A DNA stretch of 64,000 nt from a virus (Duplodnaviria; Heunggongvirae; Uroviricota; Caudoviricetes). This document shows, piece after piece, positions 9,876-17,966 of this stretch (the stretch's first letter is position 1; every line of letters starts with the position of its first letter). Below the pieces are notes generated by a model, which was not told where the DNA came from, ran no database searches, and saw only the letters and a program-made list of their open reading frames with translations. The stretch is taken from the IMG/VR virus record IMGVR_UViG_2541047850_000005, positions 1 through 64,000 of that record, one strand, 5' to 3'. A program made the translations under genes and the position numbers.

Positions 9876-11909
9876 TTACTTAACCTGGTGACCAGGTTTA
9901 GCACCAGCATCCGGGCTTAACAGGAAGATATCTTTCCCACCAGGACCAGCAGCCATCACCATGCCTTCTGAGATACCGAAACGCATTTTACGCGGAGCCA
10001 GGTTAGCCACCATAATGGTGTGACGACCAATCAGTGCCTGTGGGTCTGGATAAGCAGAACGAATGCCGGAGAAGACATTACGCTTTTCCCCACCGAGATC
10101 CAGTGTCAGACGCAGCAGTTTGTCAGAGCCTTCAACAAACTCCGCGTTTTCAATCAGCGCCACACGCAGGTCAACTTTGGCGAAGTCGTCAAAGGTGATG
10201 GTTTCCTGAATCGGGTCGTCAGCCAGTGGGCCAGTTACCGGTGCGGCTGTGGCTTTCACTTCTTCTTTGGATGCTTCCACCAGTGCTTCCACCTGTTTCA
10301 TATCGATGCGGTTATACAGCGCCTTGAACGGATTCACTTTGTGGCCCAGCAGCGGTTGCTGGATACCATCCCAGGTCAGTTCTGTATTGAGGAATGCTTC
10401 TGCGCGCTCGGTCAGTTTCGGCAGTACCGGTTTCAGGTAAGTCATCAGCACGCGGAACAGGTTAATGCCCATAGAGCAAATCGCCTGCAGATCGGCATCG
10501 CGACCTTCCTGCTTCGCCACCACCCACGGAGCCTGTTCATCGACATAGCGGTTAGCCAGGTCAGCCAGTGCCATGATTTCACGGATAGCTTTACCAAATT
10601 CGCGGCTTTCCCATGCTTCGCCAATCACTTCAGCGGCATCAGTAAAGGTTTTGTACAGTTGCGGGTCAGCCAGTTCGCTTGCCAGCACGCCGTCAAAACG
10701 CTTGTTGATAAAGCCTGCATTACGGGAGGCCAGGTTAACCACTTTGTTCACGATATCGGCATTCACTCGCTGAACGAAATCTTCCAGGTTGAGATCGATA
10801 TCATCAATGCGCGAAGAGAGTTTCGCAGTGTAGTAGTAACGCAGGCTGTCGGCGTCAAAATGATTCAGCCAGGTGCTGGCTTTAATGAACGTGCCGCGAG
10901 ACTTGGACATCTTCGCACCGTTCACCGTCACATAGCCATGAACAAACAGGTTGGTCGGCTTGCGGAAGTTGCTGCCTTCCAGCATGGCAGGCCAGAACAG
11001 GCTGTGGAAGTAAACGATATCTTTACCGATGAAGTGGTACAGCTCGGCGGTGGAGTCTTTCTTCCAGTATTCATCGAAGCTGGAGGTGTCGCCGCGTTTG
11101 TCGCACAGATTCTTGAAGGAACCCATGTAGCCAATCGGCGCGTCCAGCCAGACGTAGAAATATTTGCCCGGCGCGTTCGGAATTTCAAAACCGAAATAAG
11201 GGGCGTCGCGGGAGATATCCCACTGTTGCAGGCCAGATTCAAACCACTCCTGCATTTTATTTGCCACCTGCTCCTGCAACGCACCGCTGCGGGTCCATGC
11301 CTGCAGCATTTCGCTGAAAGAAGGCAGATCAAAGAAGAAGTGTTCGGAATCACGCATTACCGGCGTAGCACCAGAAACTACCGATTTCGGCTCGATCAGT
11401 TCAGTCGGGCTGTAAGTCGCGCCGCAGACTTCACAGTTATCGCCGTATTGATCTGGCGCTTTACATTTAGGGCAGGTGCCTTTTACAAAACGGTCCGGCA
11501 GGAACATGCCTTTTTCCGGGTCGTATAACTGAGAGATGGTGCGGTTTTTAATAAAACCGTTCTCTTTCAGGCGAGTATAAATAAGCTCGGACAACTGACG
11601 GTTCTCTTCGCTGTGCGTCGAGTGATAGTTGTCATAGCTGATGTTAAAGCCTGCAAAATCAGTCTGGTGTTCCTGACTCATTTCGCCAATCATCTGTTCC
11701 GGTGTGATACCAAGCTGCTGTGCTTTCAGCATGATCGGTGTGCCGTGGGCATCGTCGGCACAGATGAAATTAACCTCGTGGCCGCGCATTCGCTGGTAAC
11801 GAACCCAGACATCAGCCTGGATGTGCTCCAGCATATGGCCGAGGTGGATTGAGCCGTTAGCGTACGGCAGCGCGCACGTCACCAGAATTTTCTTCGCGAC
11901 TTGGGTCAT
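9876..11909 (-). CDS. metG: methionine--tRNA ligase
   Basis: 677-aa product starting [26 protein letters not shown] (HIGH motif), KMSKS motif, C-terminal tRNA-binding domain; track ORF extends upstream of the true ATG. Confidence 0.95.
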
Positions 11910-12066
11910 AGTAGGCATTACTTCTTTGTAGTGAAAAGGGGCTTGATAGTAACAAAATGGCCTTATGTCTGCCATGTGATAACAGCATTTCTCATAAATG
12001 ATTAAATGCCGTAGCTGGAGTACACTACAAGGCGACAATTGCGCAAATTAAAATAAAGGAGACGGG

Positions 12067-13167
12067 ATGAGCGAGTCCAAATCGCCGGATGCCCTGAGAG
12101 CAATGGTAGCCGGTACGCTGGCTAATTTTCAGCACCCAACCCTGAAACACAACCTGACTACGCTTAAAGCGTTACACCATGTTGCGTTGATGGATGACAC
12201 ACTGCATGTCGAACTAATCATGCCTTTCGTGTGGAATAAGCCTTTTGAAGACCTGAAAGAGCAATGTAGTGGTGATCTGCTCCGTATCACTGGCGCAAAG
12301 GCTATCGACTGGAAGCTGTCGTACAACATTGCCACGCTTAAGCGCGTCAAAAACCAACCAGGCATTAATGGCGTTAAGAACATTATCGCCGTCAGCTCAG
12401 GCAAGGGCGGCGTTGGTAAATCCTCCACGGCGGTAAACCTGGCACTGGCGTTGGCTGCTGAAGGTGCGAAAGTTGGTATTTTGGATGCCGATATCTACGG
12501 GCCATCAATTCCAACCATGCTTGGCGCGGAAAACCAACGTCCAACCTCACCGGACGGTACTCACATGGCACCGATTATGTCTCATGGACTGGCAACCAAT
12601 TCAATTGGTTATCTGGTAACTGACGACAATGCGATGGTGTGGCGTGGTCCGATGGCGAGCAAGGCGTTAATGCAGATGTTGCAGGAAACTCTATGGCCTG
12701 ATCTGGACTATCTCGTTCTCGATATGCCGCCGGGTACTGGTGATATTCAGCTGACGCTGGCGCAGAACATTCCTGTAACTGGTGCTGTTGTGGTAACTAC
12801 GCCGCAAGATATCGCGCTGATCGATGCGAAGAAAGGCATTGTGATGTTCGAAAAAGTCGAAGTGCCGGTACTGGGTATCGTCGAAAACATGAGTGTGCAT
12901 ATTTGCAGTAACTGCGGTCATCACGAGCCAATTTTTGGCACCGGTGGCGCACAGAAACTGGCCGAGAAATACAACACGCAGTTGTTAGGCCAAATGCCAC
13001 TTCATATCTCTCTTCGTGAAGATCTGGATAACGGAACACCAACCGTTATTAGTCGTCCAGATAGCGAATTTACGGCTATTTATCGTGACCTTGCAGATCG
13101 CGTTGCTGCCCAAATGTATTGGCAAGGTGAAGTAATACCTGGCGAAATCGCATTCCGCGCAGTGTGA
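12067..13167 (+). CDS. apbC: Fe-S cluster carrier ATPase ApbC/Mrp
   Basis: P-loop SSGKGGVGKSSTAVNLA, CxxC motif (HICSNCGH), divergent from metG as in enterobacteria. Confidence 0.9.
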   Translation: MSESKSPDALRAMVAGTLANFQHPTLKHNLTTLKALHHVALMDDTLHVELIMPFVWNKPFEDLKEQCSGDLLRITGAKAIDWKLSYNIATLKRVKNQPGINGVKNIIAVSSGKGGVGKSSTAVNLALALAAEGAKVGILDADIYGPSIPTMLGAENQRPTSPDGTHMAPIMSHGLATNSIGYLVTDDNAMVWRGPMASKALMQMLQETLWPDLDYLVLDMPPGTGDIQLTLAQNIPVTGAVVVTTPQDIALIDAKKGIVMFEKVEVPVLGIVENMSVHICSNCGHHEPIFGTGGAQKLAEKYNTQLLGQMPLHISLREDLDNGTPTVISRPDSEFTAIYRDLADRVAAQMYWQGEVIPGEIAFRAV

Positions 13168-13204: not shown

Positions 13205-13594
13205 CTACATCACAGGACAATCATCAAACTCGCCACTTCTTGCGTCGTTGATAATGTGAGTGATCACACCAAACACGGCATTGCTGCCCGTGCATCCATC
13301 ATCATCCTTTGGCAATGCTTCCTTCTTACCAGTTCTTAAATCCTCCAGATGCTGACGTGGATACTTCCGGTATCTTTTTACGCGATATTCCCCATCCAGA
13401 GCACATACAAGAAGAGATCCATCAACAGGAGTGAGTGAGGAATCGACCACCAGCAATGCACCCTGCAATATTCCCTCACGATGATGGCTATCAGCTGCCC
13501 TCAAGAAGTAGGTCGCTGAAGGATGTCTAATTATCTGCTGATCAAGAGAAATACGGCTCTCAGCATAATCCGCCGCAGGAGAGGGGTACCCCAT
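13205..13594 (-). CDS. umuD: UmuD-like S24 peptidase (translesion-synthesis accessory, HumD/UmuD' type)
   Basis: 129 aa; alignment-by-eye to UmuD (..HPSATYF..A.DS....GI..G.LL.VD.....G.......DGE..VK..); Ser and Lys of the S24 dyad present; LexA box upstream; no umuC adjacent. Confidence 0.75.
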   Translation of the reverse strand: MGYPSPAADYAESRISLDQQIIRHPSATYFLRAADSHHREGILQGALLVVDSSLTPVDGSLLVCALDGEYRVKRYRKYPRQHLEDLRTGKKEALPKDDDGCTGSNAVFGVITHIINDARSGEFDDCPVM

Positions 13595-15964: not shown

Positions 15965-16402
15965 TCACTCTCCTTTTCCCTGAAGCATGGCAGCGTGGCA
16001 GGCATCCTCTACGCCCTTAACTGCATCTGCGCAGTAGTTATAGCGATTGCATTCCACTAACTTCTGCTTGAGATTTTCAATTGCTTGCGCGACATCAGCC
16101 TGTATTACGGGAACGAGGGGAGCGGCGTATACTTCAATTGTCCCATTATCAATAGGCCACTCCCCATCCTTGATGTAGTCACTTGTGCCGTCAACTTGCT
16201 GTTCTGCAATGTGGAATGCACCTATTGGTTTTGTCTCAAGTGAGGCCAGTGCAATTCGTGCCAGTTTTAGATCTCGTTCGACCATCTCAATAACAACTTT
16301 GCAGTCCGCACCTTCTTTACTAACACGTCCTTTCAAGTCTTCCAGATAACTAACGCTTTCGCGTGCATGGGAGATTAACTGTTCTTTGGTTAAGGTGGTC
16401 AT
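15965..16402 (-). CDS. hypothetical protein (145 aa)
   Basis: ATG overlapping upstream stop (translational coupling). Confidence 0.5.
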   Translation of the reverse strand: MTTLTKEQLISHARESVSYLEDLKGRVSKEGADCKVVIEMVERDLKLARIALASLETKPIGAFHIAEQQVDGTSDYIKDGEWPIDNGTIEVYAAPLVPVIQADVAQAIENLKQKLVECNRYNYCADAVKGVEDACHAAMLQGKGE

Positions 16403-16587
16403 TAGGCAGCTCTCTCAACAACAAGCAATTCGTCGTAGTCATAATCAGTTTCGGAACCATCCGTACCGAACAGAGTCACTTTGTCATCTTCCATCCAAAA
16501 AGATTTAACCGCACATTGTTGACCTTTAGATGTTATGAGCACATCACCAGGGATTACATCTTCAGCGCGAACTTCTAGTGTTCTCAT
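16402..16587 (-). CDS. hypothetical small protein (61 aa)
   Basis: ORF in operon context. Confidence 0.4.
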   Translation of the reverse strand: MRTLEVRAEDVIPGDVLITSKGQQCAVKSFWMEDDKVTLFGTDGSETDYDYDELLVVERAA

Positions 16588-17114
16588 CGTGCTGACCCCT
16601 CTTTGGTTAAAATGCCTGCTGCAATGCTGTTTATGATGCTGTCAGTGCATGGAGTAGAAAGCTGGGCATCTCCAGCAATTTTCATGACCTCAACATCCGC
16701 ATATCGAATACCGAGGTGTATCAGACCGGCTATACCTGACTTAAGTCGAACATTTTCCATAAACAGATCTTTTTCCCGCTGTTTAGCGGCTTCCAACTCC
16801 ATCGACAATTTTTCCAACTGCTCTTTATGCTTCTTGTATTCCTGATACGCGTGCCAAGACTGACCTTTGCGCACACTATCAGTGATATCAGCAACCTGCT
16901 CCGGTGTTAGCGTGGTCAGTGGCTGTGCTGGAAAAATCATCACCTTCCCGGCATCCCAATCAAAACCCGCCTGAATTGACTGAACCTCAACTGATGGTGT
17001 TGAACCGATGCGACCAGGCGAATGAACAACGATCGTTACATCCATATCGCGACGATGGCTGTGGTTGTTGGACAAAATACGATTCACCAACTCAGAAAAT
17101 TTGGAAAATTTCAT
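16584..17114 (-). CDS. hypothetical protein (176 aa; start MKFSKFSEL)
   Basis: track ORF extended upstream; ATG at 17114 abuts the stop of the upstream gene. Confidence 0.5.
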
Positions 17115-17434
17115 GCTGATCCCTCTTTTTCTCCCCGGATAATTCTGTTGCACACATCCACACACTCGTCGCAGATGAAAACGGCGTCCCCAGCAATTAA
17201 CTTTTTGACGGCGTACTGGGATTTGTTGCAGAAGCTGCAACAAAGTGTTCGCCTGACTGATAAGGATGGAGCGCCAGATGTCAGCCGCTCCATATCGTTC
17301 TTGCGACGCAATATCACACGGCTGAACTCAACCAGTTTCTCCGGGGATATCTCCTCCTCCGTAGCAAGCGCCTCTAATCGTTCGAGTATGTGGAAGGCTT
17401 TTTTCTGGGTAATTGCAGAATGCGATGTGGTCAT
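17111..17434 (-). CDS. protein with ClpX-type C4 zinc-binding domain (ZBD) homolog
   Basis: C-terminus ..[34 protein letters not shown].. closely parallels the ClpX N-terminal ZBD (CSFCGKSQ..KLIAGP..YICDECV..C); start at ATG with AAGGAGAG RBS. Confidence 0.65.
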
Positions 17435-17435
17435 C

Positions 17436-17966
17436 TCACTCTCCTTTGATGCGAATGCCAGCGGCGCGGGAATCATTCCATCGCTTTACTTCTTCACGAA
17501 TTACGTCAATGCATTCTTTCGAATCCATTAGGTAATCTTCATCAAAAAGACGTTCCTGTTCGTTTTCTATCGCAACAATGATTGCTTCAACTAACTTTTG
17601 TGCCTGAGAATCACTTTCTAACTCTGCTATGCGCTTACTTCCATCCGAGATAACGCCCTCGTAATACTCACGCTGCTCGTTGAGTTTTGATTTTGCCAAC
17701 TCCAGTTGTTTTGTTAGTTCCGCAATACGGCAAACATCGTTGATACGCGTTTCCTCTAATGCGTTGATCTCATCCAGTAGTGCCAGCACGGTTTCTGGTC
17801 CGGCCAGAAATTTGAAGGCGTTGAGGGCATCAATATCAACACCGCTATCTTTAAGTTCCTGTTCACTTAACAAGTCATCATCAGCTGGCAACATTAACAG
17901 GCGTTCCATTGCTGGAATTGCACGTTCCGCCACCTCACGCAGTGCCTGGTAATTAATTTCGCTCAC
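17436..17966 (-). CDS. hypothetical acidic coiled-coil protein (176 aa)
   Basis: ORF, operon context. Confidence 0.5.

Follow-up and report, generated by a model that had tools for sequence, protein, structure and literature searches.

Why should a temperate phage carry the docking domain of a host protease component and leave the motor behind? The question arises from a gene in a Caudoviricetes virus, IMG/VR record IMGVR_UViG_2541047850_000005, of which we analyzed positions 1 to 64,000 (64,000 nucleotides, called the window here). The gene encodes a protein of 107 amino acids (aa) that ends in a zinc-binding domain (ZBD) of the kind found at the N terminus of ClpX. In the host, this N-terminal domain of ClpX is a docking platform for the adaptors SspB and RssB and for UmuD, trigger factor, lambda O, MuA, and FtsZ. 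An initial annotation, made from the sequence of the window, had proposed a stand-alone ClpX ZBD homolog, encoded by an island, that could titrate adaptors or pair with host ClpX. The domain sequence it quoted and the length of 107 aa are present exactly, in a minus-strand gene at 17111-17434. The interval it assigned, 16584-17476, does contain this gene and also takes in an unrelated 176-aa open reading frame (ORF) at 16584-17114. The gene and its parts are as follows.

17111..17434, minus strand: gene for the ClpX-ZBD protein, 107 aa, two domains (ORF listing, Pfam match, PHROG 6797)
17279..17407, minus strand: N-terminal helical hairpin, residues 10-52, with helices at 10-26 and 31-52 (AlphaFold2 predicted local distance difference test score, pLDDT, about 75-87)
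17246..17278, minus strand: linker, residues 53-63 (mean pLDDT 56 for block 51-60; sequence and length vary in the alignment)
17120..17245, minus strand: C-terminal ClpX-type C4 ZBD, residues 64-105 (Pfam, phmmer, AlphaFold2, Foldseek)

Beyond doubt, the protein ends in a genuine zf-C4_ClpX domain. Pfam PF06689 (zf-C4_ClpX) matches residues 65-100 over profile positions 2-38 of 39, with 57.4 bits against a gathering cutoff of 27 (E 1.3e-15). A phmmer search of all PDB sequences finds the E. coli ClpX ZBD entries 2DS5 and 1OVX at E 1e-14. The resemblance noticed in the initial annotation therefore holds under alignment statistics. We built an AlphaFold2 model of the 107-aa protein from a 32-sequence alignment. 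Over the ZBD, pLDDT is 86-93, and the predicted fold is a treble-clef beta-hairpin followed by a C-terminal helix. In Foldseek, the model aligns to 2DS5, 2DS6, and 2DS8 with 0.5 Å root mean square deviation (rmsd) and 71% identity over 38 residues, and target-normalized TM-scores of this predicted model to 2DS5, 2DS6, 2DS7, and 2DS8 are 0.83-0.92. The predicted zinc ligands are C66, C69, C88, and C91, and their CxxC-x18-CxxC spacing equals that of C14/C17/C36/C39 in ClpX. The conserved ligands and hydrophobic positions suggest that the protein binds zinc and forms homodimers.

The protein is not a ClpX, since it fails the equivalog test. The NCBIfam ClpX equivalogs TIGR00382 and NF003745 score 39.7 and 41.9 bits against cutoffs of 370.75 and 359 (about 40 against about 360), and their matches are confined to the ZBD, at profile positions up to 48. 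The protein has no AAA+ module, as the initial annotation had said, and the ORFs adjoining the ZBD gene, the next gene included, show no AAA+ match either. However, the description of a ZBD-only protein has to be corrected. A conserved N-terminal helical hairpin precedes the ZBD in the alignment and in the AlphaFold2 model, so that the ZBD lies C-terminal to hairpin and linker, in reverse order relative to ClpX.

We then considered what this hairpin is. An exhaustive phmmer search of 1.84 billion representative proteins with the hairpin returned nine clusters, eight of which are the PHROG 6797 family or fragments of it, and the N-terminal half alone matches PHROG 6797 at E 1.5e-27. No match to the hairpin was found in Pfam, in any other PHROG, or among PDB structures with Foldseek. 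The hairpin appears to be specific to this family and is almost never seen apart from this ZBD. Residues 6-52 (17279-17419) give a phmmer match that is weak yet significant for the library searched, E 5.8e-5, to BAG helices 2-3 of P0122, a 650-aa eukaryote-like protein with several BAG repeats (Pfam BAG, five stretches). The Pfam BAG model (PF02179) is not matched by the hairpin, and the hhalign probability is 56%; this weak resemblance may be a coincidence of helical composition.

How closely does the phage ZBD keep to ClpX at the positions that matter for docking? We compared 31 unique ZBD-family cores with ClpX, position by position. The four zinc cysteines, F68 (ClpX F16), G82, I87, V92, and C95 are invariant in all 31. 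The position of ClpX I46 is I or V in 28 of them, I47 is 90% conserved, and the positions of ClpX L12, V24, I28, V33, I35, and V40 are 87-100% conserved. Throughout, the hydrophobic core and patch positions of ClpX are identical or conservatively replaced in the phage cores, and the P88-type ZBD keeps AGPSVYIC identical to ClpX. In the window copy, codon 65 (17240-17242) encodes Cys at the position of ClpX Tyr13 (LCCSFC), a residue found in 2 of the 31 cores, with mostly Tyr elsewhere.

The substitution pattern points in the same direction. Amino acid identity between the ZBD core and E. coli ClpX is 68-76%, at saturated synonymous sites (proportion of synonymous differences, pS, 0.83-0.97), and dN/dS between SSU5/D6-type and P88-type copies is 0.21-0.33. 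High amino acid identity despite this saturation, together with the low dN/dS, indicates that long-term purifying selection keeps the ClpX-like residues, and the phage ZBDs do not look like remnants of a recent capture. Between the window and D6 copies, dN/dS of the ZBD core is about 0.9-1.4, a value that comes from very few substitutions. Recent capture from host clpX was a candidate origin that we dropped: synonymous sites are saturated, and blastn with the window copy (E<=1e-5) or the P88 copy (E<=10) never reaches clpX, matching only the approximately 220 genomes that carry the gene. Some metagenomic ClpX N termini are closer to the phage core than E. coli ClpX is (81-83% identity across the core), and the approximately 40 residues that can be compared are too few to point to one donor lineage.

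The family has a public annotation already. The 107-aa protein matches PHROG 6797 (function unknown) over its full length, residues 1-106 on profile positions 1-106 of 107 (E 2.9e-58); RefSeq names the family "ClpX C4-type zinc finger protein," and older records mislabel it "carboxylate--amine ligase." About 220 of 5,426 complete E. coli genomes (approximately 4%) carry a copy, roughly half of them on the chromosome and half on plasmids. Four kinds of temperate element are represented: SSU5-like phage-plasmids, the P1-like D6, P88-like prophages of the P2 family, and a lambdoid prophage. The window belongs to the first kind. It shares 99.7% identity with Escherichia phage PhiR41_1 (108 kb) and 95% with phage Cyrano, and its ZBD protein is 100% identical in amino acid sequence to PhiR41_1 CDS XSB42465. 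The carrier is thus an SSU5-like phage-plasmid and not a chromosomal island, contrary to what had been assumed at the outset.

In the other elements, the gene sits in recognizable places. The copy in the P1-like phage-plasmid D6 has 86% identity and directly follows an Ea22-like gene. In P88-like P2-family prophages (e.g., in UTI89), the slot reads gpA-ParM-ParR-[ZBD]-...-portal. The lambdoid prophage copy, 100% identical in DNA, lies in a nin-like region between O/P-type replication genes and RusA. An Ea22-like gene directly before the ZBD gene, as in the window, is also seen in D6, the lambdoid prophage, and the Esc11 plasmid; in P88-like prophages, it stands two genes downstream. The shared context is therefore an Ea22-like gene nearby and, in lambdoid and P2-like prophages, an early operon just 3′ of the replication genes. 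A conserved partner gene was sought and rejected. The downstream genes differ among the window, D6, and P88-like phages, only the Ea22-like neighbor recurs, and the 176-aa protein of the window shows no similarity to the product of the gene downstream of the P88 homologue. Because the downstream neighbor is not conserved, there is no obligate partner gene. In the P88-like prophages (L005 / L006 / L009-L014), a ParM plus ParR-like partition pair lies between replication gene A and the ZBD gene, and of the kinds of element with a ZBD gene, all but the lambdoid one have plasmid-type partition functions, which may be linked to an extrachromosomal way of life.

Short ClpX-type ZBDs also occur alone in unrelated phages. 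Caulobacter phage Cr30 and Pseudomonas phage PP9W2 (65 aa, annotated "Clp protease") encode one each, and PHROG 12435 and PHROG 5259 are further stand-alone phage ZBD families. The Cr30 ORF spans 2522-2761 of L007, about 81470-81709 of NC_025422, and can encode up to 79 aa; only its last 41 codons are annotated (gp170). In Caulobacter, the ClpX ZBD docks the cell cycle adaptor CpdR (PMC7804408). Judged from these sequences, carrying a free ZBD may be a general strategy among phages.

What could a ZBD do without a motor? Published work on ClpX gives a precedent. When 0.6 µM ClpXP degrades sigma-S in vitro by way of RssB, purified ClpX ZBD at 5-20 µM is inhibitory, and isolated ZBD cross-links to RssB's C-terminal domain; deletion of the ZBD abolishes RssB-dependent sigma-S degradation and leaves ssrA degradation unaffected (PMC7226468). 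The N-domain is required for recognition of MuA, FtsZ, and adaptors, whereas the ssrA tag is recognized without it (PMC5415555). For residue-level contacts, we took the XB contact map from PMC7804408, in which F16 and I46 form a hydrophobic pocket; trigger factor makes use of this pocket, and the docking sites of lambda O, SspB, and RssB overlap with it.

The best-supported reading, which we put forward tentatively and by analogy, is that the phage protein is a competitor, or decoy, for ZBD-dependent recognition by ClpXP. A competitor role is suggested because the protein has the ZBD and no AAA+ motor, and we prefer the decoy mechanism because, in vitro, sigma-S degradation through RssB is inhibited when purified ClpX ZBD is supplied in trans. 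The phage ZBD would bind the docking peptides of ZBD-dependent adaptors and substrates and withhold them from ClpXP. With its docking pocket intact, it should selectively spare ZBD-dependent substrates; these would be stabilized, and ZBD-independent degradation of the ssrA type would remain intact. We speculate that the hairpin adds oligomerization, and with it avidity, or a second binding specificity. In lambdoid and P2-like prophages, the gene lies just 3′ of replication genes, and on this account the most economical target would be an early phage protein that ClpXP degrades, for instance, a lambda O-type initiator. Alternatively, the target would be a host regulon under ClpXP control, such as that of sigma-S via RssB.

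A wider form of this reading is possible but somewhat more doubtful. Four unrelated temperate coliphage lineages (SSU5-like and D6/P1-like phage-plasmids, P88/P2-like prophages, and lambdoid prophages) would share a selective ClpXP anti-adaptor that reproduces the docking domain of ClpX in free form, with the hairpin giving multivalency or target specificity. It would shut off only the adaptor- or ZBD-dependent branch (lambda O-type initiators, MuA, sigma-S via RssB, UmuD/UmuD′, and SspB-enhanced ssrA degradation) and keep bulk ssrA quality control running.

Several observations weigh against a decoy. The gene is present in only about 4% of complete E. coli genomes. Phage Cyrano, 95% identical across the region, has neither the ZBD gene nor the 176-aa gene; there (L015 15104-15846, compared with window 16402-17434), the Ea22-like gene is followed directly by a 61-aa gene. 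The ZBD gene is thus accessory, dispensable cargo. Most SSU5/D6-type copies, moreover, have Asp or Glu where the beta-hairpin of ClpX has Pro31, and Phe or Cys in place of Tyr34; such changes might affect how peptides dock. Conservation of the N-terminal hairpin roughly equals that of the ZBD and extends even to the P88-type, a subtype with only approximately 50% identity overall, and a pure decoy model leaves this conserved hairpin unexplained. Finally, inhibition in vitro took a roughly 10- to 30-fold molar excess of free ZBD over ClpXP (PMC7226468), and because of this large excess, a decoy needs high expression or extra avidity.

Could the phage ZBD act on ClpX itself instead? It might form heterodimers with the ZBD of host ClpX, either disrupting the trimer-of-dimers arrangement as a dominant-negative poison subunit or anchoring the hairpin and its cargo on ClpX, in which case it would be a phage adaptor that delivers a protein of the host or of a rival phage for degradation. 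The residues of the hydrophobic core and of the C-terminal helix are conserved with ClpX, and ClpX ZBD dimerizes on its own (PMC7226468, PMC5415555), both of which agree with pairing. A conserved second domain on a flexible linker is the architecture expected of an adaptor, as the tether variant would have it. However, ZBDs pair at very high local concentration inside the ClpX hexamer, and Wojtyra and colleagues reportedly found in 2003 that this dimer has very high stability, which would make exchange with a free phage monomer unfavorable. The tether also has no identifiable cargo, and the neighboring genes are not conserved. We consider action on ClpX itself unlikely. The same holds for another explanation, in which a ClpX-like zinc ribbon was taken up for work that has nothing to do with ClpX, for instance, binding nucleic acid or another protein, and the resemblance merely reflects constraint on the fold and the zinc site. 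Treble-clef zinc fingers lend themselves to varied uses, and zf-C4_ClpX does occur in other architectures: as an N-terminal ZBD with a second C4 motif in P0034, P0036, P0039, and P0109, and fused to cyanobacterial sigma factors, as reported in PMC11119718. But conservation goes beyond the zinc ligands, with 68-76% identity to ClpX at saturated synonymous sites, and it takes in the surface docking residues F16 and I46/I47 and the beta-hairpin LIAG..V.I.

A role in conflicts with other elements is less probable still. Protein made by a lysogen could block superinfecting elements at steps that depend on the ClpX ZBD, such as taking apart the Mu transpososome, or it could serve anti-defense by preventing ClpXP-dependent activation of toxin-antitoxin-type immunity. 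The P88-like copies lie between replication gene A and portal gene Q, which we take to be the slot that carries tin and old in P2; Rousset and colleagues reportedly described this P2 slot in 2022 as a defense hotspot. ClpX-dependent phage defense does exist, since CmdTAC is inactive in a clpX deletion strain (bioRxiv 10.1101/2024.02.24.581848). However, the CmdA degron is a C-terminal Ala-Ala (bioRxiv 10.1101/2024.02.24.581848), an ssrA-type signal that is recognized directly, without the ZBD. No model in PADLOC-DB 2.0 matches the ZBD protein or its neighbors (8 proteins from the window and the P88 locus, E<=0.01), and the lambdoid copy sits in the nin-like early-lytic region rather than in a lysogenic-conversion slot.

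We next compared the proposed decoy with known systems. The phage domain shares with the ClpX ZBD an identical C4 spacing, 71% identity, 0.5 Å rmsd over 38 residues in the model, and conserved docking residues; it differs in having no AAA+ motor and in standing at the C terminus, behind a helical hairpin. Lambda RexB is reported to stabilize lambda O, Phd, and MazE against ClpP proteases, and T4 PinA and T7 Gp4.5 are Lon inhibitors. T5 Gp00X induces RpoS proteolysis by ClpXP (meeting report PMC11806420). All four, like the protein proposed here, are small phage proteins that retune host proteolysis, but none copies a domain of a protease component, and their folds and mechanisms are unrelated. 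IraD, IraM, and IraP of E. coli are also small and, as reported in PMC4428439 and PMC3877760, stabilize sigma-S by blocking adaptor delivery without inhibiting the protease. These anti-adaptors bind RssB through unrelated folds, have no ZBD homology, and act on a single adaptor; competition by a ZBD mimic would extend to every ligand of the ZBD. The short ZBD proteins of Cr30, PP9W2, PHROG 12435, and PHROG 5259 resemble the window protein in their ClpX-type domain; unlike PHROG 6797, they have no N-terminal hairpin, and they too are uncharacterized.

By mode of action, the closest counterpart would be the ZBD competitor made in the laboratory (Micevski et al. 2020, PMC7226468), and more loosely the Ira anti-adaptors or the phage protease modulators. 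The laboratory competitor is likewise a ZBD without a motor and works by the mechanism that we propose. It differs in that the phage gene is natural, selected, and equipped with an extra domain, and its activity is a prediction. Searches of the full-text literature turned up no work on the function of a ClpX ZBD that stands alone or is encoded by a phage. According to the initial annotation, no such decoy is known to have been characterized, and we found no paper characterizing the family, yet the family is named in RefSeq and PHROGs. ZBD-only ORFs visible in databases, trans-inhibition by a ZBD, and the domain assignment itself are thus already known or public. What is new is the combination: a docking domain already known, here without its motor, joined to a novel hairpin, and borne by phages.

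In the window, the ZBD gene belongs to a tightly packed operon. Its immediate surroundings are these.

17436..17966, minus strand: upstream Ead/Ea22-like gene (Pfam Ead_Ea22, E 7.6e-24)
17441..17446, minus strand: Shine-Dalgarno AAGGAG of the ZBD gene, read from the sequence, 6 nucleotides (nt) 5′ of the ATG and within the 3′ end of the upstream gene
16584..17114, minus strand: downstream 176-aa gene, function unknown (ORF listing; PHROG 6026, 368, and others of unknown function)
16402-16587: 61-aa gene after the 176-aa gene, with a 4-nt overlap

The 107-aa protein begins MTTSHSA and ends GEKEGSA. An ORF of 121 aa extends to 17476, as in the interval of the initial annotation, but it is a mere open frame that enters the upstream Ea22-like gene; since the homologues begin MTTSHSA, this is the true start, and the protein has 107 aa rather than 121. 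The stop codon of the Ead/Ea22-like gene is 1 nt ahead of the ZBD gene start. The start of the 176-aa gene overlaps the ZBD gene stop (ATGA), and because of this overlap the two are probably translationally coupled in this element. The 176-aa protein has no significant Pfam match and looks mosaic, with residues 1-114 similar to PHROG 6026 and residues 95-171 similar to PHROGs 11761 and 492. Terminator-like hairpins are predicted inside its gene on both strands, at 16661-16676. The ZBD and 176-aa genes form a two-gene presence/absence polymorphism in a cassette region rich in Ea22/Eaa/Eae/DUF551-type genes. No P1 C1 operator was found anywhere in the window at <=3 mismatches, and promoter-like sites in a promoter scan were no commoner than in shuffled sequence, so the timing of ZBD gene expression is inferred from gene position alone. 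Searches of the window for tRNA and Rfam families found none.

Within positions 1-25000, three other genes of the carrier lie a few kb from the ZBD gene.

9876-12038, minus strand: full methionyl-tRNA synthetase gene (metG)
12067-13167, plus strand: ApbC/Mrp-like ATPase gene (apbC)
13205-13594, minus strand: HumD/UmuD′-like S24 peptidase gene (humD-type)

Host UmuD hands UmuD′ to ClpXP through the ZBD, and for this reason it is conceivable that HumD is a beneficiary of the proposed decoy.

Under the control of ClpXP are phage initiators of replication (lambda O), transposition of Mu, the sigma factor of stationary phase, proteins of SOS mutagenesis, and some defenses based on toxin-antitoxin pairs. 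If the decoy reading is wrong, the conserved fusion of hairpin and ZBD still marks an uncharacterized protein in approximately 4% of E. coli genomes. If it is right, a phage would here, for the first time, be inhibiting a host AAA+ protease through mimicry of a domain of the protease itself. Mobile elements would then have a new and simple route to retune host proteolysis, and the protein would offer a natural means of turning off adaptor-dependent degradation only.

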